NCBI GenBank assembly: GCA_016839945.1
Contig: JAEOTE010000007.1
Location: 115,799-179,798 of the forward strand
Direction of reading: 5' to 3'
DNA from: Candidatus Heimdallarchaeota archaeon
GTDB lineage: Archaea > Asgardarchaeota > Heimdallarchaeia > Heimdallarchaeales > Heimdallarchaeaceae
Length of the DNA: 64,000 bases
Shown: one piece after another, positions 1 through 20,483 of the stretch
Numbering within the stretch: position 1 is the stretch's first letter
Layout of the letters: each line of letters opens with the position of its first letter
Made by a program: the position numbers and the translations under genes
The notes under the pieces: generated by a model
The model's input: the letters and a program-made list of their open reading frames with translations, nothing else
What the model was told of the DNA's origin: nothing
The model's database searches: none

Positions 1-3000
1 TTTGTGCAAAAATATCCCAAAGTGTATGAATATTGTTCTTATGAAGTTCAGCTACACTTTGTGGATTGTCACTAATTATATCACTTAGATAATAAAATGG
101 TAAATCTAGATTTCGTTTTATCCTTGAAACCTGAATACTATTCAACTTTGAGGTTTTCACAATCAGTTCTTCGGAAACATTCAAATGTGCTATAGTTGTA
201 TATCCCGATTTGATTAACAGTTTTCTAATATTAGCATCAAATAATCCTATTTTCTTGACACTGTAACTCTTACTCTTCAATGTTTCATTGACTAACTGGC
301 TATTCATCTTATCTTGAAGAGACTTTACAATTGCTTGCTCTTGTTCAGTTAGACTTACGCTTATCGCTTTTCTTATATCTGGAATTGAAACAAAATCAAT
401 AACTTGGATTATACCTTCGTTATGGAATTTTTCCAAAAGTCTTGGTTGATTAATGAATATAAGCATTGGAGCTCTTAACTTCTCGATAATTTTCACAATT
501 TCAGAAGAATAGTCTTTAGGATCTTTGCTTTCAATATATTCAAGTAAAATTCCTATAGTTCGAATATCTTCTTTGCGTAGGAATGATAGTATTTCTTTGT
601 CCTTTATGAACGAACTAAGTCTCTTCTGTTCAGAAGACATCATCCTTTCCACTCTTGTAGAGGAAAGTTTAGGTAGAAGAGATGTACATGTTGTTTCATA
701 TTCTATTTCACTTAATGATTTACAGTAAATTAAGAAATCAAAAACAGTCTGAAGCTTCATCTTATTCATTAAGTCATAAATCTTCTTATTTTCTCTAACA
801 GGTGGAAGAGAAAAAAGATCAGTTTCTACCATGTTCTTTAATGAATCTGAGGTCTTCCAAACACTGCTTGTTTTTGATTTAGCTTGTTTATTGAATACAA
901 GCGCTTCTTCAACTGATAGGATAAAACCTTTCTTAAGGATGGAAATATTGCTTCCTGAAAGTAAATCTTTAGGTATGCTTGTTAGGCTTCCTTCCAACTC
1001 CTTCAAAGTAATTAATGAGATATTCCTTAGATTTCTTAGGAAAACTGGATCAGGGATTTGGCTCTTAATCTTATTATAATCCTCTAACAATAATTCGTCT
1101 ATACTCCTATAGGGAAGTTTTGAGATGATATCAACTTTCAACCTGTTTGGTTGAAGTAGGATTATTGTTCTTTTTAGATGATATGAGAGTTCATTATACT
1201 TCTTGCTTATCTTAGAATGAAGCTTTGAAATTGTTTTATTATAGAGTTCTTTTTCATGTTTTTGCAATAACAAAAGGTATTCTATTGAGGAATCTGACAT
1301 ATCAAGTTTTTGATCTTTTGATTCAAGATTTAATACTTGCATCAGAGTTATACCTTTATTGAAAATAGAATTAATGGCATTTTGAATATCTTCTCTTTGT
1401 TTTTTGGTTACACTTATCTTATTGAGATTCATTGATAAATATGCTAAATCTAGTAGATTGAGAGAATATTCAGTTTTTGATACTAAATCCTTAAGCACTA
1501 ACTTTTCAAATACTTTTATTTTATCAAGTAAATAATTAGGAATCTTATCTAATGATACTTCTTCATCAAAAAGATCGGAGTAATACTTGATACTTCTCTG
1601 ATTTAGAATCGCTATATCCTTTGCAGAGAATATCTTACTTTCTTTTATCACTGGATGGCTTCCAAAATTACTGCTTGTTAAAGAGTATCTTATTTTTTCA
1701 ACTTCTGCTTGTTTTAATAAGAGAATTGAAGCAAGTTCTTTGTTAGTTAATAGATAAAATTCTTCTAAATTCTTAACATAGTTCTGTATGTTTTTCCAAC
1801 TCTTAATTGTAACATCAGGAAGGAGTAAAAGCTCAATGGGTAGTTTTAGAATTCTCTTTATTTTGTTTGCCAGAGATTTGGAAAATGTGAACGTTTCTTT
1901 GTTTAAAGCAAAAATCAAATCATCCATTGTTGAATAATGTTTCTGAATTTCTTTCTTTGTTTCAGAATCGAAAATTTTCACTCTGCTTAACTGTACTTTC
2001 TTCTTAACATCTGTTTCAATTTTCTTGTAAGTTAGTGAAGAGGTAATTTCTAGGATTTTATCTTTCAATTTAGCAGGGGACAATATCATCCAAGAAGAGA
2101 TGGGTTTTATTATGAGATCTCCTATAGTGTAAATACTCTTATCTTCTAAAATCTGTAGATCTGCCTTTGTTAGAACAGCGAGTGAGGAAATGGGTTTGGA
2201 GAATGTTTGTTCAATTTTGAGACCCAAATCCGATAGTGAATCCTCTTTTTGATATAGTGTTGTTATTAAATCCAATATACTCTTAATTTTTGTTGTTTTT
2301 GTTTTCTTTGTGAACAATTCTTTAACATCGCTTTCCTCTATGTATTGATCTTTGGATATATAATTAGCTATTATACCTTCTTTTGATGCTAAGTAGTCTC
2401 CTAAGAATCCAACAATATTTGCTTTTTCTGTAGCATCACTTGTTTTCATTAAATCTCGAAAAGTTACTATTCCAGAATCTAAATAGTTGCTTTTTATTTC
2501 ATTTAGATTCTTTTGATTGATTTTTGGATAATAAAGGACAGAAGTGTTATAGACTTCTTCTGCTTTATTTTGAATTTGTTTAATCTTTTTCTCTGAAACT
2601 AACCAGTCGTAAATTGTGTTATTCATTAAATCCTCGAGATTGTAAATTCCTATAGATTTCAGATAATTTCTGTCTTGAGCTGATAGGAAGAAAATTTCTT
2701 TCAAGTTTTGTTCTGCAACGGAATCTATTCGTTGAACAATCGAATCTACTTTGAAATTCTTAATAGTATTTTGAATAGTTGTGACTTTTACTTTTGAAGT
2801 AGTTGCAATAACTTTAGGAGATAGATAGAAGATATCTGCAATAATATTAACACCTGCAGATTTCATTTTCTCTAAATCTTTAGGATCAAAATCTAGAAAG
2901 CGTAGATTCGCCAATAAATATGGAGTAATTTTCTTGAAAATGACTTCATCATCTTTGAATGTAGGTGATGTCAATATTGATTTGTATGAAGAATATCCTT

Positions 3001-6000
3001 TGTTTGATAAATCAACTTCTAATTCGGATAATGGTTCTTTAAATCCCTCTTCTTTTATACCTTTTATTAACGAGAGAGAGAGAATAATTTCATCTTGAAT
3101 ATTCTTTGGTAATTTATTAAGGAATATCAAATGCTCAATGATGGTTGTGAACCCTTTTTCATAACAATAATCTAGTGACTCTTTTGTTATTGAGGATAAA
3201 TAGCTGATATTATTGGATAATTGACTTCTGTAGTCATCAACTTCTTTTCCTTTTACTTTACTATTAGTTACGATATGACTAACAGGAACGAAGAAAAGAT
3301 GCTCAACTGTTGTTATACCTATTTGAAGGAGAGAAGTTGCTGTCTTCTTTGGTAATCCCAACATTTCAATTGAGATACCAAACTTATCAATTTTCTTCAG
3401 GTTTTTAACAAGATAATCTGGTTCTTCTTTCTGTTTTGTAATAAGCTTACTAAAACTTGCTGGCCAATTCTTCTGAGGTATAGCTAACAAATCGTTATAT
3501 GTTGTTATATTACTATTTAACAAGTCTTTAATTTCTGTATCTTTCAGCTTTAATGATTTTCCAATTAACGTTATTGGGGTTAATAAAATAGAGATGAGTT
3601 TTACAAGATTTTTCTTTTCCTCAATAGGTATTGGTATTAAATCAAGATTAAGCTCTGATGCTTGAACTAGAGATACACAACCATACTCGGAAAGAATGGT
3701 TTTGGTTTCCTTTGTTATTTCAGAGAATAGGCTTAAATCAAGACCTATTAATTTTACATTTTCTTCTAATGATTTAATATCAATAGTTGTTTTAATGGTC
3801 CTTATTTTTTCTTCTGCAACATTGATTAGTTTGGCTAAGAGTGGAGCTGGAATGAGAAGGAATTGGTAAAGGTTTCGAATGCCATTGTGTTTTAGTTTTT
3901 CTATTTGTTTGGAAGTTAGGTTACCTATATAGGATAATGGAATACTTTTTAGTGATAGAAGTAGAGGGCAAACTTCTGAGAGTAATTCTCTTTTTTCTAC
4001 AATCTTACTATCTAGTGATAAAAGCTCATCTAGATAGAGTATTTTTTCATCCTTTAATCTCTTAATAAGAGCTGAATCTGAAACAATCTTAATATCAGAG
4101 AGTTTGATCGCCCATTCTGGAGGGCTTATCTGTATAACTATACTATTAAGAACCTCTACTATTTTAGAATGCAGATCATGATTTTCCTCTTTCTCTGATA
4201 AACATAATAATCCTGATACAATGTTGTTACAATCGCTTTGAGACAAAATATTCAATTGTGCAATGTTAAGCTCAACGTTAGAAATGAGCCATGAAATTGG
4301 CTTAAACATATTTGAAGTGATTATTCTGATTAATGATTTCTCGATATCTCCAAAATCAAAAACTGGGTGAGGTATGAAATCTACTAATAATAGAGCACTT
4401 GATAATCCATATTTCATAAATTGTTCTTCTGCTTTATTTGGAAAGGAGAGAGCATGATCAATATAGTATGAAAATGTTTCTGACATTCTTGTACTCAAAT
4501 TAAATTCTCTTTGGAATATTCTTATTTGCTTTGCTACAGCTTTTGGTATACCAATTATTGTGTTGACATTTGTTGAGAGAAGTTCAATAACATGTTTAAT
4601 ACCATTATTCCATAGAACTCCTTTAGAAGAAATATCAAAACCTGGTAATGCAAGAACATTCAAACACAGAAAGCTAACTAATTGTTCAATAAATGCTATG
4701 CTTGAGATTTTTTCTATTCTTTCAGATTCTGATAGTTGTAGCAGTGCATCTGGGATAAAACCAAATATATCTTCTACAGCTTTTTTTGTTGGATCGAATT
4801 CAAGAGATTTAAGCAAGTTGATTATAGGTTCGTTAAGGGTTAATGTTCTACCTTTTGAAAGTGTGAAAGTGCCTTTCCTAGCTGAACTTATGGTTTTTGG
4901 AATTGAACCATTCAAGGCTCGTTTCAAATCCTTATCTGAACAATTAAAGAGATCAATCAACCTCAGAATTCCTTCACTAGTTAAGTTTAGTTTCTCCTCT
5001 GAAGATAACTCTGAAATTCGGTAAATTGAGATGTGACACGCGTTTAGAAAATCTCTCATATAGTCCCCAGAGACACTCAATGTAGGATATGCTTGATAAT
5101 TTGAACTATACAAATCTTGAACATGTATTTTTCCAGATTTAAGTAGAGAATTAATTTTTCCCTTTGATAAAACAAAGAAGTTTACTAACTCGACACCTTT
5201 TCGTTTAACTTCTTTCATCAAATTAGAAGGAGTGATTTTGTCCAAGTATGTTTGCACTTTTTTCTCTGACATGTTTAGTAAAAGAGAGATTGTAGAAACA
5301 TCCTCTGTAATAAAGGAGAGGATATCACCTACACCTGAATATATAAGCTTCATTACATGATGATTATCTAAACCAATAAAAGCTACAGAAGAGCGATATA
5401 GTTGCACTTCTCTAAAGATATCTAATCGAACTAGAGCAGGACGAGATTCTCTTATTTCTTCCATTCTTGATATAAAGTCTTGTACGGAGTTGATACCTAT
5501 ATCTAGTAGTTTTTCGAGATAATCTTCCTCAATTGAAGGACAAACAGTAAGAGGTATAGCAGAACTAATTCTTCTTTCTGATAACTCATCGAATGATATG
5601 AGATCTAGTGCATGAAACTCTTTGTATATTGGATTTTGCGTAATTGTAAATAACTCATCTCTATTCAATAAAGCAAGATCTATAACGGAATTTATTTCAT
5701 GATACTCCAGACGTTTAATTTCATCATAAGATAGAAAGCCTATGAATCGGATTGAGCCAGATAAGAGTTCTTTTGCTTTCTTATATACGTCAACTTGAAG
5801 TATTTCAGAGATACCTAACAAAGATGCTGAATAGAAGAGAGTTTCAATATCTGTAATCCCTAAATCTTTTAGCTCATCTAGTTTTTTCTCTGGTATTAGT
5901 TCTGATGGTCTTATTAAGTGAGATTGTGATAAACGGAAGGACACAATATCGGTGTAGGTTAGACCTTCTTTTATTTCTCTTATTTGTTTCTGGGAAAAAC

Positions 6001-9000
6001 CAGAGATTTCTGAGAGTTGCTTTTCTGGAAGTGAGAAGAAATCAATCAATGTATTAATTGAAGATTTGCTCAACTTGAGAGTAAGTTCTCTTGGAAGCCC
6101 CATGGAAGCTATTGGGATTGCTAATTCCATTATTAGTTTATTAAGAGAGTCAGTCTCCATTAAACTTGAGAAGAAAGGCGAGAGGGCAGAATGTTCCTCC
6201 AGATTTATTTCAAATACATCACCAATTATGACGTTTTTGTATTCTTCTCTACGAGCTTTTCTGATCTTAGTGAAGAAGGGTGTGATTCTAAGAGGTAACT
6301 CTAAAATTGATCGAATTAATGTTAGATTATAATGATCTGTAAGGTATTGTTTGTCTTTACCAGTTAAGTCTTTTATAACTTTTGGATCAGTAATAACATC
6401 TGATAACGTTTTATTTTCTACTTCTTGAATAACCCTGTTGAAATATGATGAATTATATACAGATGCAGGTAGTTTAGCGAAGTAATGGAAAGCTTGCATT
6501 ACTATTATTTTTGAAGAATATGTAGAAACAACTCTGTAAAGCACTGGGTCTTTAAGATCTATATCAGGAATGAAAAGTAATTGGTAAACATAATGGATAT
6601 CATTTTGTTCTAAAACCTCTAATGAAAATTCTGAAATCTCTGTAAAAATCTTCAAAGGTAAGGTGAGGTATTTCTTAACAGCTGATATCTTTATCCACAA
6701 TTCTGGATTAGAGAAATAATACTGTTCTTCTATAGTATAGAATATTTCTTGAATTGTTTGGAATCTTTCAAAGTGGAATATTGAATCTTTACTCAATAAT
6801 CTTTGTTCAAGTTTATCAAACAATTGAGTTTCAAAAGCAAAAATACCCTTTTGTTCATACATTGCTTGAATGCTTGAGGATGTCAGAGAAGTTATTATAC
6901 TTTCAGCATCCTTTGGAGAGATTTTTATGAGTTTGCTTAGTTTTTGAGATGATGCAAGAATAAACTCAGATATTGTTTTTATTCCATTTTCTCTTAGAAT
7001 TTCTGTTTGACTAAATGAGAGCGATGGTAAGAAATAAACAGGTAGTGAGAAGTAGCCAAATATATCTGAAAAGTCTAAAGCACTTTTTATTGTTTCAAAT
7101 CTTTCATCTGGTATTCCTGTTTTTTCCATCAGAACTTCAGGAGAGGATAACATAAAACCAAGTAAAGTCCTTATTTTTGCTTTTTCTAATAGTTCTATGA
7201 TTTCAGGATCTAGCATATCAGAAATATGATCCAAAGATAGATTCAAGATAGCTTTAAAGGATTCAATAACATCCCATGGTAAAATTTCCTCATTCCACTT
7301 ATCTTTTGAAGTTGAGAAGTATAAATCCTCAATTGTCATTATGTTATTTTCATCCAACACTCTGACAATTCTAGGTTCTAATATTCCTAATTCAGAAAGG
7401 TCAATTCCAGTATCACTTATTCTAACATTCCTTTGAAGAAGTATAGCTTCTTCATTATCTACTCCTAAGAAAGAAGCAATATCTTCAGATTTACTTACTA
7501 GTAAATCAATAATTTTAGTGATTCCATTATTTCTCAAAATGTTGAGTTGTTGGGTTGTCAAGGTTCTAGTTTGGACCTCTTCTATTTCTTGTGTTTCTTC
7601 GGATTCTTCAACTTGAACAGTTTTCTTGATGATTTTCTCCCATGTTACTAGTGTTAAAGGAGACCTCAGTAGCTTTCTGAACTTATCAATGACATTCCAG
7701 TTAACTACTGCTGAAGAAAAAGTGAGAGGGTGGGCTAAGTAAAAAATCTTATCCACTGTATCATAGCCAGAAAGTATTAGTGATACAATTTCGTGTGAAG
7801 AAAATCTCTCTGATTCTTCGTATTCAAATGATATTAGAGAAGTATATTTATTTCCTGATTTTTCAAAGAAATGAGTACCTTTTTTCTCAATTGCGAAAAC
7901 ATCTATTAATTGCTGGGTTTCTTGAGTAGACCTTACTAAAGTAGCTGCTAACTCATCAATAGTATATTCAAATAATTGATGAATAGCTGTTATCCCTCTG
8001 TTCCTTAATTTATCAAAATCTTCAAGAGTTAACTTACTTATTCTAGAAATTGGTAAACCTAGAGTTTGAACGAATTCATCATATTCACTAATTAGTAAGA
8101 TTTCCTTACTAAATTGATCAGTTTCTGAAAATGTTCTATTCTTGATATTATTGTGAAGCTCAATAACAAGTTTTCTTTCTTTAGCAGTGTTTAACTCAGA
8201 TTCAATAATTTCTGGAATAAGATCTAAAAATTGTCTTACTGTTACAATATTTCTTAATTTCAAACGAAGAAGAGCTTCTGTAAGCAGAGATAAATCCTTG
8301 AATTTGTCTGGATATAGTTGAGTAAGTTCGATTATTTCCATATTCGCTAATTGATTTAAATGTCGAATATTTTCCCAAAAACCTGTATTCAATGTTGGTT
8401 TTTCAGTAGGGTAAACACTGTATAGATCTTGGATTGTTAGGTTATGTTTTTCTATGAATTGAACTAATCTTGGATATTGGTTACTAAGTAAACTCAAACT
8501 CTTTCCAAATTCTGTTCTATTCTTTTTTACTTCTTCTTCACTTATTGATTGTTTTAAATCCTTTACCCTTTCTTCTGATATGTTTAATACATCAGATAAA
8601 TCAGAATTAGACCAGATTGAGAACCTGCCAATACAGTTTATTCCTATTTCTTGCAATAAATATGATTGCCTTCTTAATGAAGGAAATGCAAAAGATATAG
8701 GAGTTAATAAAAGATTTGCAGTTTCTAGATATGTTCTTTTTGCTTCTCCTGTTAGATTGTAAGCTTCAGGAGGATTGTAAAAAATTTCCTCAATAGATAC
8801 TATTCCTGCAGTTTTTAGTGTTTCTTGATGTTTTATCCATTTGAATATTGGAGTTCCAAGACTCTTTTTTATTCTCTCAACATCTTTTTTTCTCAAACCT
8901 AACTTTCTTAATTGAGGTGATGGAAATGCTAAGAATGCAGTAGTTGTAAAAATTTGAAGATTAACTAATTGTTGCTCAATATCCTTTGGTATTACTTTAA

Positions 9001-10140
9001 CGTGAGACAAATCTTTATCTTTCTTTGACTCTCGAATGTGAGATATTAATTTGTGTTTTGATTCCTTGAGTAGTAGATCACCTATCAATTTGTAATCTCT
9101 TTTCAAAATTGATGCTGTGGGTAAAGAGATTAGGTTAGTAAGAGTCTTTATACCTTTTTGAGATAGAACCTTTATGGCTTCTGTTTCCTCTTCCCTAAGT
9201 ATTTCATCAGAAATTAACTCAAATTTAGATAGTTCAATAGATTCTGAGGATTTGACTAGAGTATCTAGAAAGGTATTGTACAAATTCCTCTCTAGTTCCT
9301 TTATTACAACAAGATCATCTAGTTTAGCATTAATTAAATCCTCAATTGTTTTTATTTTTCTTCTATGAAAAGCGTTCTTAGTATAAGCATCTGTCCAATC
9401 AGGTTTCATCTTAGTTACATTGGTCTTAGAAAATGTAGGAAACTTATCACATAGTTGAGAAAAAATATTTTGCAGGTAATTAACTAAAACAGCTGTTACT
9501 TCTGTTTGATAGTTTACTGAATATGGTAATTTTGTTTGGTAAAGAAATTCTTCAATGGTTGTATCTTGAGATATCAAACCTTTAGAATTATCTTTTAGAT
9601 ACTCAAAAGTTGGAAATAGTGTATCTATTTTTATGTCATCAACTTTGGTGAGTGAAGCCAGAAGTTGTTTTCTTTTTTCTGATTTAGCTTTACTTGTTTT
9701 ATCCTTGGTTAGTAAGTACTGATGAAGGAGCTGTTCTTTTTTATTTTCGAAAAGTTTCTCTAGTAATCCAGTAACTGTTTGTAGTTTGTTAAAATCTGTA
9801 GCGAAATAATGGTAACTGTTTTGTATCCATCTTCGATATAAAGCCTCTTTTAATGTGATTATAGTTTTTTCATTTTGAGTAAATCTTCTTTCTATAGTTC
9901 TACTTACAAAGAGTTTAGGATCAAAACTAGGGCTCATTCCCTCTCTATCAAGTTCAGATATCGTTCTAAGTTTGATATTGTAGATATCTTGTTTAGTAAG
10001 TTCTAACAGTTTTGCTATATTATCAGATGGTGTTATGAGAAAATCAGAAATAGATTCAATATTGTTTGTTCGAAGAACTGATTGAATTCTTGATGGACAC
10101 CATACATTAGCACCAAATAATCTTCTTCCCAAAGGCATGA
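1..10140 (-). repeat. Protein-level degenerate tandem repeat array (about 40 or more HhH/SAM-like units) in the Top6B C-terminal extension
   Basis: Recurring L-x-x-x-G-I-x-T-I-x-D/E-L/F core, e.g. LRTNNIESISDFL, LSQKGIKTLTNLI, LKTAGIVSIEEIF, LRNNGITKIIDLL, LRENGIKTISEFI, LKDLGITDIETLF, LKHNGIRNLYQFL, LLQIGITTVEHLF, LKSIGIYNLEDLM, LIKSGYTTIAHLN. No DNA-level repeat identity noticed. Confidence 0.85.
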
Positions 10141-11839
10141 AGAGCTTAACTTTTTTTGTTGCACCATGAGCCAAGGCCGCAGCAATTCTGTCAGTTTCTA
10201 ACCTAAAATCAGTATAATTAACTGCTTCATCTTCTAAAATTTTTGTTAGATTATCTATGATTATTGGTGCAGATCTTACAAAGCGTGATAATCTTGCATG
10301 CTCTCTTCTTCTTCTTTTAGCTCTGCTTAAAAATGTCTTTAGTCTTCTCCCCAACTGCATTAATGCTAATCGTATCTCTTCCTCAATCTCAGGAACAATG
10401 GATATATATTCTTTACTTGTTTCTGGAAAAGGAATCTTAGTACTTACTACTGATACAGCTACAGCTAGAGGATCAGATTGCCTTGTTAACCCATATTCAT
10501 TCCATCTTATTGAAGAAACAGTATGAGAAATAACATCGTTCCCTGCTCCAAATATGAGTGGGATACGATTTGCGTACCTATAAATTATTTTATTATCTTG
10601 AACGGTAGCTCCCTTTACTTGCGAAGCTTCATTTACTCCCCCTCCATAACCTATTGCTACTTCTACAACAAAGGGATGACCAGAATAAGCTTTAGGAGCT
10701 CTTGTTACAGCTTCTACAAATTTAGGTTCCAGTTCTTTTTCTAAACCCCTCCTTAATCTATTCGATCCTAATGGTGATAAAGCAGTACCTTTTGGATCAT
10801 CAAACTGAAATATTCTATCTCTTTTTCTTTTAACATCTTTCGCTTCTTGGTAAGCTTTTACAAAACCTTCATGAACTATTCTTCTGATTTCGTGAGAGGT
10901 AATATCTTTTGGAGATTTGTTTGGATCAATCTCTAAAAGTTGGAAGAAACCTTCTGCTATTTCCTCATTTACTCCCATGAATTGTGTTGCTAGAAATTGC
11001 TTGAGTGTTTTGCTTTGACTTGCAGTTAATTCTGCCTTGAACTGAGTAATATCACACCCCCATGGATGAATTTTAACTGGTTGAGGAGGGGGAGGCATAT
11101 CATCTACAACACTAAGAAAGTCCAGATCTTCATATTCACCTTCTTTATCTGCAGGAACTTTGATTTTAAAACTGGAATAAGGGGTAATAATTGCTAATTG
11201 CTTAAAATATTCTTTTACGCTATTCTTAGCAAGCCTCCATGCTCCTGTAAAAGTGATTGATATTTCTGTTCCAGGTTCTTCAAGATAGTTTGGATCTCCT
11301 GGTAGGTACTCACGTTGTTCCATGATTACAGGTTCGTTCTTTTCAAGATTTATCATTAAATGAAGCTCATGGGTAATATCATCCATAAAGTATCTGCTTC
11401 GTATTTTTGCAGGTAAGTCAACAGATGACATAGAGTATAGCAAACACATTTTTGCTCCTAAACCAAAACGACCTCGTGTTTGAATTACTCCGTATTTTGT
11501 TCCAGTCAATACTCTCCCAAAAAGTTCAGCAATCTGGTGTCCAGGAACTCCTATCCCATTATCTTTACAGGTTAGTTGTAGAAAATCTAGATGCTTTTCT
11601 AATTTTCTGTATTGCGTAACATCAAGCAATTCATTTATTTCTCTGCTGGAAAGTTTTCTTAAGTCTAAATCAATAACAGGATTAATTCCTCTTTTTTCTG
11701 CTGCATCTAGTCCATTCTCAACTAACTCTCTGATACTTGTGAAAACAGCTCTCATTGAATTACCAAAACCAGCAATGGCTCTGTTTTCATTAAAGAAAGC
11801 AGCAGCTGACATTTTTTTTGTAACTGTATCTTCTGACAC
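1..11839 (-). CDS. top6B: Giant DNA topoisomerase VI subunit B fused to a long HhH-like repeat array (>=3946 aa, 3' end outside window)
   Basis: Manual translation from GTG at 11839 (SD-like AAGGTG upstream): MSEDTVTKKMSAAAFFNENRAIAGFG...RELVENGLDA (GHKL N-box)...CKDNGIG (G1)...GTKYGVIQTRGRFGLGAK (G2)...GTEI...HPWG...RYANRIPLIF...RWNEYG (WxxY)...STKIPFPETSKEY (switch Lys). The same frame reads ...LHKNNIHTLWDIFAQ at bases 2-46. The ORF track has no minus-strand ORF in 1-11.8 kb, as expected for one ORF with no stop in the window. Confidence 0.93.
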   Translation of the reverse strand, partial: MSEDTVTKKMSAAAFFNENRAIAGFGNSMRAVFTSIRELVENGLDAAEKRGINPVIDLDLRKLSSREINELLDVTQYRKLEKHLDFLQLTCKDNGIGVPGHQIAELFGRVLTGTKYGVIQTRGRFGLGAKMCLLYSMSSVDLPAKIRSRYFMDDITHELHLMINLEKNEPVIMEQREYLPGDPNYLEEPGTEISITFTGAWRLAKNSVKEYFKQLAIITPYSSFKIKVPADKEGEYEDLDFLSVVDDMPPPPQPVKIHPWGCDITQFKAELTASQSKTLKQFLATQFMGVNEEIAEGFFQLLEIDPNKSPKDITSHEIRRIVHEGFVKAYQEAKDVKRKRDRIFQFDDPKGTALSPLGSNRLRRGLEKELEPKFVEAVTRAPKAYSGHPFVVEVAIGYGGGVNEASQVKGATVQDNKIIYRYANRIPLIFGAGNDVISHTVSSIRWNEYGLTRQSDPLAVAVSVVSTKIPFPETSKEYISIVPEIEEEIRLALMQLGRRLKTFLSRAKRRRREHARLSRFVRSAPIIIDNLTKILEDEAVNYTDFRLETDRIAAALAHGATKKVKLFMPLGRRLFGANVWCPSRIQSVLRTNNIESISDFLITPSDNIAKLLELTKQDIYNIKLRTISELDREGMSPSFDPKLFVSRTIERRFTQNEKTIITLKEALYRRWIQNSYHYFATDFNKLQTVTGLLEKLFENKKEQLLHQYLLTKDKTSKAKSEKRKQLLASLTKVDDIKIDTLFPTFEYLKDNSKGLISQDTTIEEFLYQTKLPYSVNYQTEVTAVLVNYLQNIFSQLCDKFPTFSKTNVTKMKPDWTDAYTKNAFHRRKIKTIEDLINAKLDDLVVIKELERNLYNTFLDTLVKSSESIELSKFELISDEILREEETEAIKVLSQKGIKTLTNLISLPTASILKRDYKLIGDLLLKESKHKLISHIRESKKDKDLSHVKVIPKDIEQQLVNLQIFTTTAFLAFPSPQLRKLGLRKKDVERIKKSLGTPIFKWIKHQETLKTAGIVSIEEIFYNPPEAYNLTGEAKRTYLETANLLLTPISFAFPSLRRQSYLLQEIGINCIGRFSIWSNSDLSDVLNISEERVKDLKQSISEEEVKKNRTEFGKSLSLLSNQYPRLVQFIEKHNLTIQDLYSVYPTEKPTLNTGFWENIRHLNQLANMEIIELTQLYPDKFKDLSLLTEALLRLKLRNIVTVRQFLDLIPEIIESELNTAKERKLVIELHNNIKNRTFSETDQFSKEILLISEYDEFVQTLGLPISRISKLTLEDFDKLRNRGITAIHQLFEYTIDELAATLVRSTQETQQLIDVFAIEKKGTHFFEKSGNKYTSLISFEYEESERFSSHEIVSLILSGYDTVDKIFYLAHPLTFSSAVVNWNVIDKFRKLLRSPLTLVTWEKIIKKTVQVEESEETQEIEEVQTRTLTTQQLNILRNNGITKIIDLLVSKSEDIASFLGVDNEEAILLQRNVRISDTGIDLSELGILEPRIVRVLDENNIMTIEDLYFSTSKDKWNEEILPWDVIESFKAILNLSLDHISDMLDPEIIELLEKAKIRTLLGFMLSSPEVLMEKTGIPDERFETIKSALDFSDIFGYFSLPVYFLPSLSFSQTEILRENGIKTISEFILASSQKLSKLIKISPKDAESIITSLTSSSIQAMYEQKGIFAFETQLFDKLEQRLLSKDSIFHFERFQTIQEIFYTIEEQYYFSNPELWIKISAVKKYLTLPLKIFTEISEFSLEVLEQNDIHYVYQLLFIPDIDLKDPVLYRVVSTYSSKIIVMQAFHYFAKLPASVYNSSYFNRVIQEVENKTLSDVITDPKVIKDLTGKDKQYLTDHYNLTLIRSILELPLRITPFFTKIRKARREEYKNVIIGDVFEINLEEHSALSPFFSSLMETDSLNKLIMELAIPIASMGLPRELTLKLSKSSINTLIDFFSLPEKQLSEISGFSQKQIREIKEGLTYTDIVSFRLSQSHLIRPSELIPEKKLDELKDLGITDIETLFYSASLLGISEILQVDVYKKAKELLSGSIRFIGFLSYDEIKRLEYHEINSVIDLALLNRDELFTITQNPIYKEFHALDLISFDELSERRISSAIPLTVCPSIEEDYLEKLLDIGINSVQDFISRMEEIRESRPALVRLDIFREVQLYRSSVAFIGLDNHHVMKLIYSGVGDILSFITEDVSTISLLLNMSEKKVQTYLDKITPSNLMKEVKRKGVELVNFFVLSKGKINSLLKSGKIHVQDLYSSNYQAYPTLSVSGDYMRDFLNACHISIYRISELSSEEKLNLTSEGILRLIDLFNCSDKDLKRALNGSIPKTISSARKGTFTLSKGRTLTLNEPIINLLKSLEFDPTKKAVEDIFGFIPDALLQLSESERIEKISSIAFIEQLVSFLCLNVLALPGFDISSKGVLWNNGIKHVIELLSTNVNTIIGIPKAVAKQIRIFQREFNLSTRMSETFSYYIDHALSFPNKAEEQFMKYGLSSALLLVDFIPHPVFDFGDIEKSLIRIITSNMFKPISWLISNVELNIAQLNILSQSDCNNIVSGLLCLSEKEENHDLHSKIVEVLNSIVIQISPPEWAIKLSDIKIVSDSALIKRLKDEKILYLDELLSLDSKIVEKRELLSEVCPLLLSLKSIPLSYIGNLTSKQIEKLKHNGIRNLYQFLLIPAPLLAKLINVAEEKIRTIKTTIDIKSLEENVKLIGLDLSLFSEITKETKTILSEYGCVSLVQASELNLDLIPIPIEEKKNLVKLISILLTPITLIGKSLKLKDTEIKDLLNSNITTYNDLLAIPQKNWPASFSKLITKQKEEPDYLVKNLKKIDKFGISIEMLGLPKKTATSLLQIGITTVEHLFFVPVSHIVTNSKVKGKEVDDYRSQLSNNISYLSSITKESLDYCYEKGFTTIIEHLIFLNKLPKNIQDEIILSLSLIKGIKEEGFKEPLSELEVDLSNKGYSSYKSILTSPTFKDDEVIFKKITPYLLANLRFLDFDPKDLEKMKSAGVNIIADIFYLSPKVIATTSKVKVTTIQNTIKNFKVDSIVQRIDSVAEQNLKEIFFLSAQDRNYLKSIGIYNLEDLMNNTIYDWLVSEKKIKQIQNKAEEVYNTSVLYYPKINQKNLNEIKSNYLDSGIVTFRDLMKTSDATEKANIVGFLGDYLASKEGIIANYISKDQYIEESDVKELFTKKTKTTKIKSILDLITTLYQKEDSLSDLGLKIEQTFSKPISSLAVLTKADLQILEDKSIYTIGDLIIKPISSWMILSPAKLKDKILEITSSLTYKKIETDVKKKVQLSRVKIFDSETKKEIQKHYSTMDDLIFALNKETFTFSKSLANKIKRILKLPIELLLLPDVTIKSWKNIQNYVKNLEEFYLLTNKELASILLLKQAEVEKIRYSLTSSNFGSHPVIKESKIFSAKDIAILNQRSIKYYSDLFDEEVSLDKIPNYLLDKIKVFEKLVLKDLVSKTEYSLNLLDLAYLSMNLNKISVTKKQREDIQNAINSIFNKGITLMQVLNLESKDQKLDMSDSSIEYLLLLQKHEKELYNKTISKLHSKISKKYNELSYHLKRTIILLQPNRLKVDIISKLPYRSIDELLLEDYNKIKSQIPDPVFLRNLRNISLITLKELEGSLTSIPKDLLSGSNISILKKGFILSVEEALVFNKQAKSKTSSVWKTSDSLKNMVETDLFSLPPVRENKKIYDLMNKMKLQTVFDFLIYCKSLSEIEYETTCTSLLPKLSSTRVERMMSSEQKRLSSFIKDKEILSFLRKEDIRTIGILLEYIESKDPKDYSSEIVKIIEKLRAPMLIFINQPRLLEKFHNEGIIQVIDFVSIPDIRKAISVSLTEQEQAIVKSLQDKMNSQLVNETLKSKSYSVKKIGLFDANIRKLLIKSGYTTIAHLNVSEELIVKTSKLNSIQVSRIKRNLDLPFYYLSDIISDNPQSVAELHKNNIHTLWDIFAQ

Positions 11840-12003: not shown

Positions 12004-15000
12004 TTATTTCTTTTTCAATTTAAATTCTGGAGAAGTTCTATGAAGTACAACTGAAGTTATAGCAAAACCTATTGTAACAAAGAATAATGCACCAAAAGCT
12101 CCTATAGTTCTTGAAGTATCAACTTTATCTATTTCATCCAAGAATTGACCTTTTATGTCATCATAATATACTTCAGTAGCTATAGTTCTGTCATACTGCC
12201 AGAATAGACTACTCATGTCACCAGCAAAACCTGGATTTCCTTGATGCCATGTAGGATATTGATGAACTTTATCAACATGCATTGGATTACTGCCATATTT
12301 TGATGGATTTAGGAGTGAGAACATTTCTACGTGTTGTTCAGCTCTAGAGTTATAGTCTAATCTGTCCTTTCTATCAACAACAGTTCCAGTTTCTCCTTCT
12401 ACTAGCATTTCAAGCTTGTGTTGAGGATCAGTAGTTCTTCCAGGTAAGGAGTTTGTTAAATGCACATCAGAAGGTTTCAAACCCATATTATGCATTTGAT
12501 CCCAAATACCTGTGTAGATAAAGGTTGTATTAATAAAATTAGCTGCGGTCATCCAATAGGTTTGTTCATTGTATGTTTCTTTTACTGGAAAATCAGATTG
12601 ACAGAAGTAATAAAACACTACTTCATCATAGTACAAAGCGTAATCGTTTGCTAGATAAACAAAAGGTCTAAAGAAAGATTCAAACCATTGATTTCGTTCT
12701 CCTCCTTCTATTTGAGGATAACCTATGAATGAATCATATGTTGAATTGTAAACTGCTTCTTCTTGTAAATAAGGCCAATATTCAAATTGAACTTTCGAAT
12801 GGGCATACCAACATTCTAAGTATGTATGAAGCTCATCTTTATTTTCGAGAGTGAATGTTTCTGATACTGGTTCTATTTGGTAGTGGATTAAACCTTCAGA
12901 ATAATCTGCTAGGTAAAGTTCATTTCCATCTGCATAAACTCCATAAGCTTTTCCTAGGTGATCAGATCCATTAAGTCGATAAAGCTCCGATGGAGAGCTT
13001 TTTGATGACACATTAACTACTGTGAGCCCATCTTCTCCTTGTGTTAGGAAAACTTTGGTTGAATCAATGTAGAGATTATTGTAATATGATTCACTTGGAT
13101 CGAAACCATACTTCCCTTCTAGTGTAAGGTCAGCTCCAATACTGAATATAAGTAATCCTTCTACTTCATCAAGTACATAGAGATATGAACCTTCAACCTT
13201 TAAATCAAGGATATTATTAAGTTCAGTGAAGTTTGCTGAATCATAATGCTGATACAGTTCATCAGGTTCGAAAGTCAGGCTGTCTAATCGGACGATATCT
13301 ATTCCATCAGTCCCCAAACCAACATAAGCATTTGTTCCACTTACAGCAATAGATAATGCATCTCCTGAAGTTTCATTAAATGTAGAAAATGTGTTACTTA
13401 GCGTACCATCATCTGAAATCCCTACAGATGTAATACCATACTCCCCATTGGCAATATAAAGATAATAAGTAGGACTAGTGGTGCCAAATAAACCATAATC
13501 AATATCGTGCATATCAGCTCTTCCATAGTTAGTCCATTGTTCCAATTCTTCGATGAATACAGGTTCAGTTGCATTCAGGACTTCTAAACCTCGTTCTCCT
13601 TCAGTTGCATAAATAATAGAGTCAATAACTGTAAGTGAAGTTACTTCTCCTGAATAGTCTCCATATTGTCCTACTGCTAAGAAAAGTGGATGAGTTGTAT
13701 TTACAATTTTAATATCATTTTTACCTTCAATTACATATGCCATTCCGTCTTTAACAAAAACATCCATTGATTTTGATCTCTCAAAAGAAGGAATATTGCC
13801 AATTGCCAAGATTTTACCTACATCTTGAATATTATTTACTCCAGTTCTATGAGCATAATAAAGATCGTTGTTCCAATCGACATCTGTTGATTCAAGAGTT
13901 TGATTAACAATCAGTGGAAACTTTTTATTTCCTAGAAGGACATCTTCAACACCAGTTAACCATTCTAGTGTTGTTCTTCTACAAACGTATGAGATTTGAT
14001 TTTCAAATAACCAGTTGAGTGAAGGTTTTCCTAAGAGGAAATTCATATATTCAGCAAATGATTTTGCATGAGTTTTTTCAATTTCAGTGTCAATACCATA
14101 TATATCTGTTAATAATTGCTCTACATCAACTATTAAATCATCAACAGCTGTATAATCCAACCCTCTAACTAGATCTAAGAAGAATTTAGCAGATCCTTTA
14201 TCACCAGTTAAAATTGAATAATCTTTACCATTATATGTAGCATTGTATAAGATCCTGTAACTTGTTGCTCTGTCAAAATCTAAATCTGGAAAAGCAGGAC
14301 GAACACTAATCCAATTGTGTGGTATGTAAGTTCCTATATCTATTAAATTTTCTTCGTTTGCAAAGGTTTGGTTTAATACAATAGAAGCTAAATCTTGATC
14401 GCTATAACCAAAACTATCTTTAAAACCAAGTAGTTCTTGTTGCAGAAGATAAGAAGCAACATAAGCTTGGAAACCGTATTCGGTTCCATTTCCAAGATGT
14501 TCTAGATAATAAGGCCACATATAATTGAAATTTAAAACATATTCGTTTCCAGTTAATTCTGATGAATCTTGGTTTAAGATATATTGTTTTCTTTTAGTAA
14601 AAACAACATAATCATCTTGTCCCTCTACTGAACTAAATTCTTTAACGGTTTTGTTAATAATAACATCGAATGTTAAATCTCCTTGAACCGTTATGTATCC
14701 TATACGAGCATTATAGTCTACAAATGCTTCCCTATCACTCACATTATAAAAAGTAAAAGTAGCTGTATTATAATATCTTGATTCATTGTTTTGAACTCCC
14801 ATATACATCCAATCTGAAAAATCGTCGGATCCTGTATAGGGTACAATATCATCTTCACTAATTATTCCATAAGCAAAAATTCTTTCAGTAATCTCTGCCA
14901 TGCTGATTTTTGATCTTAAAGGTAGTAAGATACCCATTGCTATTGAAGATCCTAATGTTACAATAATAATCATTGCTCCTAATGCGGTTCTTAATCTAGC

Positions 15001-15006
15001 TTGCAT
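12004..15006 (-). CDS. CD36/scavenger-receptor-class-B-like membrane protein with inserted LVIVD-repeat beta-propeller
   Basis: N- and C-terminal TM helices. CD36-like blocks FYNVSD, RRTTLEWLTGVEDVLL, RTGVNNIQDVGKI, HKLEMLVEGETGTVVDRKDRLDYN, LFWQ. Central LVIVD repeats (YATEGERGLEVLN, AYVGLGTDGIDIV, LYVLDEVEGLLIF, LYLADYSEGLIHY). Confidence 0.75.
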   Translation of the reverse strand: MQARLRTALGAMIIIVTLGSSIAMGILLPLRSKISMAEITERIFAYGIISEDDIVPYTGSDDFSDWMYMGVQNNESRYYNTATFTFYNVSDREAFVDYNARIGYITVQGDLTFDVIINKTVKEFSSVEGQDDYVVFTKRKQYILNQDSSELTGNEYVLNFNYMWPYYLEHLGNGTEYGFQAYVASYLLQQELLGFKDSFGYSDQDLASIVLNQTFANEENLIDIGTYIPHNWISVRPAFPDLDFDRATSYRILYNATYNGKDYSILTGDKGSAKFFLDLVRGLDYTAVDDLIVDVEQLLTDIYGIDTEIEKTHAKSFAEYMNFLLGKPSLNWLFENQISYVCRRTTLEWLTGVEDVLLGNKKFPLIVNQTLESTDVDWNNDLYYAHRTGVNNIQDVGKILAIGNIPSFERSKSMDVFVKDGMAYVIEGKNDIKIVNTTHPLFLAVGQYGDYSGEVTSLTVIDSIIYATEGERGLEVLNATEPVFIEELEQWTNYGRADMHDIDYGLFGTTSPTYYLYIANGEYGITSVGISDDGTLSNTFSTFNETSGDALSIAVSGTNAYVGLGTDGIDIVRLDSLTFEPDELYQHYDSANFTELNNILDLKVEGSYLYVLDEVEGLLIFSIGADLTLEGKYGFDPSESYYNNLYIDSTKVFLTQGEDGLTVVNVSSKSSPSELYRLNGSDHLGKAYGVYADGNELYLADYSEGLIHYQIEPVSETFTLENKDELHTYLECWYAHSKVQFEYWPYLQEEAVYNSTYDSFIGYPQIEGGERNQWFESFFRPFVYLANDYALYYDEVVFYYFCQSDFPVKETYNEQTYWMTAANFINTTFIYTGIWDQMHNMGLKPSDVHLTNSLPGRTTDPQHKLEMLVEGETGTVVDRKDRLDYNSRAEQHVEMFSLLNPSKYGSNPMHVDKVHQYPTWHQGNPGFAGDMSSLFWQYDRTIATEVYYDDIKGQFLDEIDKVDTSRTIGAFGALFFVTIGFAITSVVLHRTSPEFKLKKK

Positions 15007-17972: not shown

Positions 17973-19343
17973 GTGCTATATTTTTTTGTTATGGACTCCA
18001 ATTCTTCAAAACCTGTTTCTGTTAAAGCAAATTATGTTGTTCCAGATGACGTTGAACTCCCCAATTTTGATTTCGAGAACCTTATAATAGAGCACTATAA
18101 GAAATATCCTAGAACAGCTGCTCTAGTGGAGAATCCCACATATGTTAAAGCTATAATGCAACCTTTTAGAAAGTTTTACTTGGTCCCTTTAGCTTTATTT
18201 AAACTAAAACTAAACACAATTCTTTCCTTGAGATGGAAAGAATATCTCAAGTTATGGATATATGTTGTAATAATGTTTATACCAACATTACTTTTTACAA
18301 TCATACCTTTAGAAAAAGCTTTTGAAGGTTTTTCAACAAGTAGATGGATTGCTGATATACTTTTTAATGTAGGAATACCTATACTTATTGCTATTCTACT
18401 CTCATTGTTTTATTTGAAATACACACATGATGGATTTTTGGGATTAACTTTGGCAAAAAGAATTGAATGGCTAGAGAAACCTGTAAGGGAATATTATACA
18501 AAATATTATGATCGAAAACTTCCTAAGAACCCATTTATTATTTTAGCATCTCTTGCTACAGGAATTGGAATACAAATTCCATTGATACAGTTTTCAAATG
18601 CAAATGGGTATAATGCAGCTGCGGCTTTTGGAATCATTGCTTGTATCTTTAACCCTGTACTATTCTATATTTTCTTCGTAGCCTCTTATTATATGATTAT
18701 CAACACAAGATTGTATTCAAAAGTTCTCAAACCTATTAAGGATAGAATTAAAACATATATGAAAGAATATGGAACTCTATTGAACAGAGAAAATTATGAC
18801 ATTATTTGGTCTTTGGGAGACAAATGGAGTAAAGGTCGTTCAATTCGTCAACTAGAAAACATTCCAACAGCAGGTATTCTATCTACTTTGATAATAATAA
18901 TAGCTATGGGGATGGGTAATGCAAATGAACTAATTTATGCCTTAGCTGGTGAAATGCCTTTAGTTAATTTTGAATTTCTTTTCATCCATGTGGGGCAACC
19001 TGTAACAGTACTAGTAGTAACGATTTCAGCGCTTGTAGCTGCATTAATGGTATTAGTCGTTTTGTTACCTCTAATTATATTTCATTCTAGAATGAAGAAA
19101 TTCAAAATCAAAGCTTTAATGGAACTTGATAATTATATTTTCGCAAATGTTGTTGAGTTTGAAATAAGGTATGCTGAAGTGGCTAAGCAAGAAAATGTAA
19201 CAATGTTTCAGCTTCGTGAATACATAGCTTCAATGCGAACGTTTCCTATTTCAACTTCAAAGTTGTTTAGAACAATAATGGCGGTAATTATCTGGATCTT
19301 GAATATGTTGAAGATTATCAGATCAGTAGGAGGAGGATTATAG
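17973..19343 (+). CDS. Polytopic membrane protein of unknown function (likely start ATG 17991)
   Basis: About 6-7 hydrophobic segments; stop abuts the ATG of the next gene, with GGAGG SD inside its 3' end. Confidence 0.8.
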   Translation: MLYFFVMDSNSSKPVSVKANYVVPDDVELPNFDFENLIIEHYKKYPRTAALVENPTYVKAIMQPFRKFYLVPLALFKLKLNTILSLRWKEYLKLWIYVVIMFIPTLLFTIIPLEKAFEGFSTSRWIADILFNVGIPILIAILLSLFYLKYTHDGFLGLTLAKRIEWLEKPVREYYTKYYDRKLPKNPFIILASLATGIGIQIPLIQFSNANGYNAAAAFGIIACIFNPVLFYIFFVASYYMIINTRLYSKVLKPIKDRIKTYMKEYGTLLNRENYDIIWSLGDKWSKGRSIRQLENIPTAGILSTLIIIIAMGMGNANELIYALAGEMPLVNFEFLFIHVGQPVTVLVVTISALVAALMVLVVLLPLIIFHSRMKKFKIKALMELDNYIFANVVEFEIRYAEVAKQENVTMFQLREYIASMRTFPISTSKLFRTIMAVIIWILNMLKIIRSVGGGL

Positions 19344-20483
19344 ATGTCTTGGTTAAAACGCAAACTTTTCAAGAAGAAGATTTCTGTAGCTATTATTGGA
19401 GTAGGTAATGCTGGATGTAGAATAGGAGAACAAATTATTCATCACCTTAGGGAGAGCAAAATCACAGTAAAATCATTAGCTATAAATCATGAAGATAATT
19501 TTCATCCAAAAATCAATAATTATTCAGATGAATTCTGGTTTGGATCAAAGAAGAATCTATCATCAAACTATGAGTTAGAAGATGCAATGAGTGATTTGAA
19601 GAAAAAGGAAATAGATTTACGAGACAAACTTGAGAAAGTTGTTTTTTACAAACGAGATGATAGAAGAAGTGATGATGATTTAGCTTTGCATCTTATTGTA
19701 GGAAGTGGAGGAGGTACTGGTAGTGCAGGATCTATGATTGCTAGTAATCTAATTACTGATATAGTAGGTGATCCCCCCACTGTAATCTTTGTAGTTCCTG
19801 AAAAAGATGAACCATCACTAGTTCAATATAACGCTGCAAAAGCTCTCTTCCACTTAGGATTCGACTTAAAAGGTCCTTATTGCCCAGTAATTCTCTTTGA
19901 TAATGAAAAACTATTGAATTTTTATTCAGATGAACAGATTGAGCAAGCTCTTGAAAAGAGTAATGAAATACTAGCAGAGACTTTAACAACTACAATTCTT
20001 GCTGCTTTACAAGAAAGCACTCATGAAGAGTATAATGCTAATCTCAAAGATTTCTTTAGCTCCTTCACAAGAGAAGCTAGAGGATTAGGAGTGATTGTTT
20101 CTCTTGACAAAGAATTTGAAACTTTAGAAATAGCTCAAAATATCAGATTTTCTGATCTTTTCTTCGGTGAATTAGATGAAAATTCAAGCTTGACAGCTGA
20201 TGTAACAAGGGCAAAACTTGGATATTTAACAATTTCAACACCAACAACTTATCAATCAACGTTCGAAACAAGAAAAATAGTAAAGAAATTTGAAAGAGGA
20301 GATATTAAAGCAGCTCTCAACTCGATAGATGAACCATTTCTTACAATTAGAGGAATCTTAACAGGTATTCATCCGGATTATGTTGATCGGTTCTGGGAAA
20401 TACTGGAAAAGGGAAGAGATAGCAGAAAAAATATTCTAGAAATTGAATCAAAAATAAGAGAATCCTATATAAGTTTAACATAG
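19344..20483 (+). CDS. Divergent tubulin/FtsZ/CetZ-superfamily GTPase
   Basis: T1 IIGVGNAG, T4 GSGGGTGSAG, T5 VVPEKDE, YNA, T6 LFDNEKL, T7-equivalent NANLKD; basic/aromatic N-terminus MSWLKRKLFKKK. Confidence 0.88.
   Translation: MSWLKRKLFKKKISVAIIGVGNAGCRIGEQIIHHLRESKITVKSLAINHEDNFHPKINNYSDEFWFGSKKNLSSNYELEDAMSDLKKKEIDLRDKLEKVVFYKRDDRRSDDDLALHLIVGSGGGTGSAGSMIASNLITDIVGDPPTVIFVVPEKDEPSLVQYNAAKALFHLGFDLKGPYCPVILFDNEKLLNFYSDEQIEQALEKSNEILAETLTTTILAALQESTHEEYNANLKDFFSSFTREARGLGVIVSLDKEFETLEIAQNIRFSDLFFGELDENSSLTADVTRAKLGYLTISTPTTYQSTFETRKIVKKFERGDIKAALNSIDEPFLTIRGILTGIHPDYVDRFWEILEKGRDSRKNILEIESKIRESYISLT

Follow-up and report, generated by a model that had tools for sequence, protein, structure and literature searches.

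Topoisomerase VI is usually the main type II topoisomerase of archaea and is the ancestor of the meiotic Spo11/TOP6BL proteins, and the archaea of the Heimdall group are the closest relatives of eukaryotes. Known archaeal ATPase subunits (Top6B), such as those of S. shibatae (2zbk_B, 530 aa) and M. mazei (2q2e_B, 621 aa, with an Ig-like C-terminal domain), are far smaller than the protein described here, and the M. mazei enzyme is a preferential decatenase (PMC8837201). For Asgard Top6Bs, Villain et al. 2022 (PMC9348778) reported lineage-specific globular C-terminal extensions in gyrase-encoding archaea and proposed a division of labour between topoisomerase VI and gyrase; the text of that paper mentions neither a HhH array nor a size of thousands of residues. 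An Asgard C-terminal domain is also listed by Brinkmeier 2022 (PMC9665070), whose text likewise has neither a HhH array nor such a size.

A comparable layout is known from topoisomerase V of Methanopyrus kandleri, a type IC enzyme in which tandem (HhH)2 domains, thought by its authors to confer processivity, come after the topoisomerase domain (PMC9489208). Its catalytic domain is unrelated to that of the present protein, it has AP-lyase activity, and it carries 12 such domains as against about 50-57. Streptomyces TopA likewise has a Lys-rich low-complexity C-terminus, which there stabilises DNA binding and whose lysine repeats confer processivity (PMC5714199), but TopA is a type IA enzyme with its tail near the core, and the likeness is one of analogy, not homology. 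The fold of the repeated unit is shared with the Rad51/RadA N-terminal domain, the RNA polymerase alpha-CTD, NusA AR1/AR2 and the C-terminal domain of AF1548, where it is present as a single or paired copy; some uncharacterised proteins contain about 4-11 copies resembling the alpha-CTD. The original prediction knew of no arm-bearing Top6B, and our literature searches, covering the text of openly available papers, likewise returned no description of this architecture.

The window analysed is a stretch of 64,000 nucleotides from a Candidatus Heimdallarchaeota archaeon (genome G000, contig C89, positions 115799-179798); we give window coordinates for features inside it and C89 coordinates for those beyond its edge (Table 1). 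A minus-strand frame opens with a GTG at 11839 and continues uninterrupted to the window edge (3946 codons), as had been predicted. It leaves the window by about 673 bases and ends at C89:115125, giving a complete product of 4170 aa, with no N in the sequence, that is identical to database record P0003. This is the longest ORF of the genome and eight times the normal size of the topoisomerase VI ATPase subunit; its absence from the default ORF list is due solely to the frame leaving the window. A stop, a terminal domain and a downstream top6A had been sought past the edge, and all three are there: the product closes with a lysine-rich tip, and the start of top6A (469 aa) lies 1 base past the top6B stop. 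The search for a second, normal-length top6B by tblastn found none in this 88%-complete assembly. NCBI labels the close relatives Ca. Heimdallarchaeaceae or Heimdallarchaeota.

Table 1. Features of the top6B-top6A locus. Residue numbers are those of Top6B, except in the last row.
Feature	Position	Strand	Basis and details
Top6B GHKL ATPase domain, about aa 1-250	11090..11839	-	E38, N42, D93; G2 box 122-128
H2TH region, about aa 255-345	10805..11077	-	Alignment to 2zbk_B; short basic insertion relative to S. shibatae
Transducer and basic stalk, aa 349-545	10205..10795	-	PF09239 E 1.9e-54; WNEY at 446; switch K476
Neck and first two arm units, aa 546-720	9680..10204	-	Conserved across giant forms; 9 basic vs 3 acidic conserved columns
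Arm of five-helix (HhH)2-type domains, in-window part, aa 579-3946	2..10105	-	Profiles, AlphaFold
Last arm units, aa 3947-4089	Beyond the window's left edge (C89)	-	Profile and AlphaFold
Lys/Thr/Ser/Pro/Ala-rich tip, aa 4090-4170	Beyond the window's left edge; gene end C89:115125	-	24 K, 2 acidic
PCNA-box-like motif KQTTLLD, aa 4141-4147	Beyond the window's left edge	-	Conserved motif
top6A	C89:113714-115123, beyond the window's left edge	-	Ubiquitin-like domain about aa 1-84; Y210; TOPRIM E295, D347, D349

The N-terminal 545 residues are wholly Top6B. Residues 7-544 score above the cut-off for PRK04184 and TIGR01052, the core aligns end to end with S. shibatae 2zbk_B (E 1e-84), the H2TH region is continuous in that alignment between the GHKL domain and the transducer apart from the short insertion, and PDB sequence matches to this part are to Top6B only; the type IC catalytic domain of topoisomerase V is not present. 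Among 85 relatives the switch lysine is invariant. The WKxY motif reads WNEY in the query; its Trp is invariant and its Tyr nearly so, while the Lys varies, with WNEY and WKNY each found in 18 of the 85. The arginines of the basic stalk are conserved. The GHKL motifs, H2TH region and switch lysine noted at the outset are all present. With the WKxY lysine, which varies, as the one exception, all features open to sequence analysis mark the query as a true Top6B. With known archaeal Top6Bs it has in common the GHKL domain, H2TH, transducer, switch lysine and the operon with top6A; it differs by (HhH)2-type domains that add about 3,600 residues and by a basic tip, by WNEY in place of WKxY, and by a partner Top6A with an N-terminal ubiquitin-like domain. 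Since the catalytic residues are intact in Top6B and are also retained in Top6A, the query is likely an active topoisomerase VI.

The arm that follows the core shows no BLAST self-matches at E<0.1 because its repeats are too degenerate, and profiles were therefore needed. An HMM for which other families alone supplied the seeds picked up 20 query units scoring at least 6 bits, compared with 0 in the reversed tail and 0.05 in shuffles. A family-profile scan found 40 units between aa 579 and about 4090, with neighbours spaced 50-68 aa apart, and none in controls or in the core. AlphaFold models of aa 1255-1740 (486 residues; pLDDT 87, pTM 0.71) and aa 3095-4095 (1001 residues; pLDDT 90, pTM 0.67) together contain 21-24 units in 1,487 residues, some of them where the sequence signal is absent, and extrapolation from these two models predicts about 50-57 units for the whole arm. 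The expected 40 or more repeats are thus borne out. The pTM values suggest that the units are packed against each other in a defined way. There are two types of unit, which tend to take turns so that the pattern repeats about every 120-125 aa, and two beta-hairpin inserts lie near aa 1325-1340 and 1398-1426.

In the models, the unit of about 60 aa takes the five-helix (HhH)2 fold of the Rad51-NTD/alpha-CTD/SAM-like class, as had been proposed from the repeat motif. VIA-align placed the unit of the AlphaFold model closest to the RAD51D N-terminal domain (Z 8.3, rmsd 2.2, 59 aa), with RAD51C (Z 7.6), the alpha-CTD (Z 6.9), the C-terminal domain of AF1548, NusA AR1/AR2 and many SAM domains among the further matches. 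These Z-scores are middling, and a Pfam match to PF21794 (E 5.5e-21) is in line with them. Foldseek against the PDB gave no match at E 0.001 or better, and the best TM in an Atlas structure search for the arm was 0.30; topoisomerase V was not listed in any fold search, which counts neither way. No stand-alone copy of the array occurs elsewhere in the genome. A profile search of 1.84 billion proteins returned 35 matches with an E of 1e-30 or lower, each of which fits an arm orthologue or a fragment of one. Among the weaker matches are uncharacterised proteins in which a few alpha-CTD-like or HhH domains stand in tandem; in such proteins we saw neither arm-scale arrays nor arrays on a type II topoisomerase.

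Continuity of the frame was judged from independent assemblies and from dN/dS. A search of 400 genomes of the phylum identified 20 family genomes, two of them single-contig, with frames of 4140-4305 aa at top6B, and the alignment of 24 family members is almost gap-free. When distant members are compared, about 78% of core residues are identical, and 28-53% of those in the arm. For seven pairs, dN/dS was 0.02-0.09 in the core and 0.04-0.23 throughout the arm. These sequence comparisons indicate that the giant frame is not an assembly artefact; together with the models, they show the arm as a folded chain of domains under selection. In two assemblies, real splits or sequencing errors divide core and arm into two or three ORFs (L069:4969-15809 and L080:1369-8183).

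To place the query among its relatives, we used a tree from a quick IQ-TREE run with midpoint root and SH-aLRT supports only. The search of Asgard genomes for long Top6Bs, as originally suggested, recovered arm-bearing forms of about 1,100-4,300 aa across the Heimdall group, and all of them form one clade (SH-aLRT 100). A short form, f7 (six units in about 1,110 aa), branches as the sister of all the others, which comprise f28 (about 2,290 aa), Hodarchaeales (2,310-2,460 aa), two branches of 2,940-3,140 aa, Kariarchaeaceae-like proteins (3,470-3,920 aa) and the query family (about 4,200 aa). We take f7 and f28 to be probably Gerdarchaeales and Wukongarchaeia. The arm-bearing form is the standard Top6B of most of the class, so that the idea of a new system particular to this window gives way to that of a remodelled known enzyme. 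Sampled plant and algal Top6Bs (about 670-800 aa) fall outside the arm clade; the arm therefore arose later than that split, or was lost. The notion that every long Asgard Top6B bears an arm was rejected, as Loki-type and other Top6Bs of 960-1350 aa contain no units and owe their length to insertions before the transducer. In some of these (L056-L062, L066, L067) the insertions resemble repeated H2TH units, with no relation to the arm. The end of the f28 arm consists of about 600 aa of charged helical sequence without units.

Both subunits have been remodelled in this one clade of the lineage nearest eukaryotes: B acquired an arm that reaches as much as seven times the size of the enzyme, and A acquired a ubiquitin-like domain. 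The latter is found in every giant-arm lineage inspected (f1, f3, f4, f5 and f28), and not in f7 or the other families shown. The assignment of the Top6A N-terminus as a ubiquitin-like beta-grasp domain draws on sequence profiles: the f28 orthologue passes the Pfam ubiquitin cut-off (27.4 vs 25.4 bits), the best PDB match of the N-terminal alignment profile is polyubiquitin (E 0.0011), and the query N-terminus alone gives a weak match to FERM_f0 (E 0.004). An Atlas feature search for the domain returned sub-0.9 leads only, and a complex prediction with Top6B 345-770 scored 0.00, which is evidence neither way. Elsewhere, a 747-aa Top6A (L063:5357-7600) has a long Lys/Thr/Ser-rich N-terminal extension.

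Other type II topoisomerases accompany the arm. Genomes of families f1-f6 encode gyrB in 68 of 71 cases, all with a single top6B, while gyrB was found in 0 of 12 genomes of f7 and 0 of 5 of f28; a second, short top6B is present in 10 of the 12 and 4 of the 5, respectively. Every arm-bearing lineage thus has a second type II topoisomerase, either gyrase or an ordinary topoisomerase VI. A strict pairing of arm and gyrase was rejected, given that f7 and f28 have arms and no detected gyrase, which differs from the statement of Villain et al. 2022 (PMC9348778) that extensions never occur without gyrase. The links between arm and gyrase come from few lineages and are not independent events. The arm clade bears on the idea that topoisomerase VI specialises where a second type II enzyme exists. 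At a Hodarchaeales locus (L052:4372-17001; also L078, L071 and L080), gyrB, gyrA, top6B and top6A form a head-to-tail cluster, and at an f28 locus (L055:3362-17606) ordinary and arm-bearing topoisomerase VI operons stand in tandem with a 968-aa HEAT-repeat gene between them.

The basic tip, its conserved motif and the Top6A ubiquitin-like domain all lie outside the window. Of 25 complete family members, 24 retain the motif within a stretch that cannot otherwise be aligned, and its pattern, which was picked after inspection, occurs in 41 of 113 proteins compared with 2.6 in shuffles. A PIP box calls for Gln at its first position and for Leu, Ile or Met at its fourth, close to a disordered C-terminus, and the tip has these features, with Q4142 and L4145 at positions 1 and 4 conserved in the same proportion. 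The PIP-box aromatics at positions 7 and 8 are missing from the query, which has Val and Ser; some relatives (P0051, P0069, P0078) have Phe or Tyr at position 7, and similar motifs bearing these aromatics are found in other branches. The genome encodes PCNA (contig C38), and the motif resembles the C-terminal motif of a 350-aa protein of the same genome that is probably FEN1. The motif is PIP-box-like and a candidate PCNA contact. Kariarchaeaceae-like proteins have a basic tip in which the motif was not found, Hodarchaeales g14 proteins have little basic tip and a short conserved end motif, and the C-terminus of one relative consists of two SAP domains.

We read the query as a working topoisomerase VI specialised as a tethered decatenase, to which we assign a probability of roughly 0.4, and we infer each functional step from the architecture, fold, conservation and co-occurrences described above. 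The A2B2 core would perform ordinary ATP-driven strand passage. The ancestral arm would have been a short DNA-binding tail of six GhG-bearing units, as in f7; its later amplification would have produced a semi-rigid spacer, with inner units that have lost their hold on DNA. The far tip may anchor the enzyme, its lysine-rich tail on DNA and probably also via PCNA; so anchored, the enzyme is proposed to remain on newly replicated chromosomes and could unlink daughters at a distance from the anchor. Gyrase, or the second ordinary topoisomerase VI, would take over routine supercoiling and thereby free the arm-bearing enzyme to specialise. It is possible, if somewhat doubtful, that the strand-passage core of this remodelled enzyme has two arms, each with dozens of helical domains, that connect it to PCNA or to distant DNA. 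If so, the enzyme would be a type II topoisomerase of long reach that is coupled to replication or bridges chromosomes, and its mode of targeting would be one without known precedent in the family from which Spo11 arose. Against the proposed anchor stand the lack of PIP aromatics in the query motif, the apparent absence of the motif in Kariarchaeaceae-like proteins and the little basic tip in Hodarchaeales g14. A mere tether, moreover, does not explain the tightly held arm length within families or the conservation of many single arm positions.

Alternatively, the arm might, as originally suggested, wrap or track DNA over its whole extent, in which case it would be a processivity clamp built into the enzyme or a collector of crossings; we consider this rather unlikely. 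Arm and topoisomerase V share a fold class, and the 12 (HhH)2 domains of the latter loosely encircle DNA with few direct contacts (PMC9489208), so that the GhG hairpin signature may be dispensable. The signature is retained in f7, at 50% and 38% at the two hairpins with positive charge nearby, but it occurs in only 0-1% of units in the query family, the Kariarchaeaceae-like and the Hodarchaeales giant forms, and at 0% and 7% at the two hairpins of f28. Hairpin surroundings in the giant forms are mostly neutral to acidic. The arm as a whole is near neutral in the query family and net acidic in most other families; in the query it is mildly basic in the proximal 600 residues and the distal third and holds a conserved basic cluster (K1676, R1680, K1684), yet the conserved mid-arm columns include 142 hydrophobic, 14 acidic and 6 basic ones. 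Loss of GhG and the charge pattern weaken the DNA-wrapping idea; with GhG lost in giant arms and kept in f7, the arm seems more spacer- or tether-like than a DNA wrap. Overall, of the original prediction the in-frame fusion of Top6B to a (HhH)2 array stands, while DNA binding by the units themselves is not supported as stated, and neither is a new system particular to this window. The clade offers a natural series, from six GhG units to arms of about 1,800, 3,000 and 3,600 residues without GhG, which permits a direct test of a DNA-binding tail turning into a spacer or scaffold.

It is unlikely that the arm instead serves as a protein scaffold that organises a larger topology machine; its units would then bind gyrase, RNA polymerase, RadA, replisome parts or one another, much as the acidic repeats of NusA or SAM domains bind partners. 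NusA AR1/AR2 and many SAM domains among the fold matches would fit this, although Z-scores of 5-8 indicate a common fold only. The neutral to acidic arm surface, the gyrase-topoisomerase VI gene cluster of Hodarchaeales and the acquisition of the Top6A ubiquitin-like domain in the same clade also point that way, but f28 has a long arm where gyrase was not detected.

A role of the arm and a histone-H1-like tip in organising the chromosome, in an order poor in canonical histones, is improbable. Arms are longest and basic tips strongest in an order where PF00808 histones occur in 7 of 46 genomes, compared with 36 of 36 in the rest of the class. This order is a single lineage, however, and the coincidence therefore counts as one event. 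Genome G010 combines a canonical histone with a frame of at least 4240 aa, histone-rich Hodarchaeales also carry a 1,800-aa arm, and a 4170-aa enzyme is unlikely to be abundant enough. In the query genome no canonical histone was found, but the description as a genome without histones was rejected after a six-frame scan: three divergent histone-fold ORFs of about 57 aa, missed by PF00808, lie on contigs C59, C53 and C34. We take these to resemble alpha3/face-to-face-type histones. The order UBA460 has likewise been reported to be poor in canonical histones (PMC10919886).

Misassembly, chance fusion or functionless neutral repeat expansion is largely refuted, for although frame breaks cut the arm from the core in two other assemblies, full-length frames recur in 20 family genomes, two of them single-contig, the alignment is colinear and almost gap-free, purifying selection acts along the whole arm, and the tail lacks the self-similarity that might cause a misjoin.

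Several neighbouring genes were recorded. Upstream of top6B on the same strand, window positions 12004-15006 encode a protein of 1000 aa that has a hydrophobic stretch at its N-terminus and weak LVIVD repeats; this gene does not adjoin top6B in the other families inspected. A 379-aa divergent tubulin/FtsZ-family GTPase (19344-20483; PF00091 E 2e-8) is directly preceded by an unannotated 456-aa gene (17973-19343), and the sole match of a 1473-aa ORF (39255-43676) is a weak Ig-like one (Big_13). At another locus, an Alba gene (L002:5202-5645) is convergent with top6A, and a small Ras-like GTPase and a HEAT-repeat gene follow farther along.
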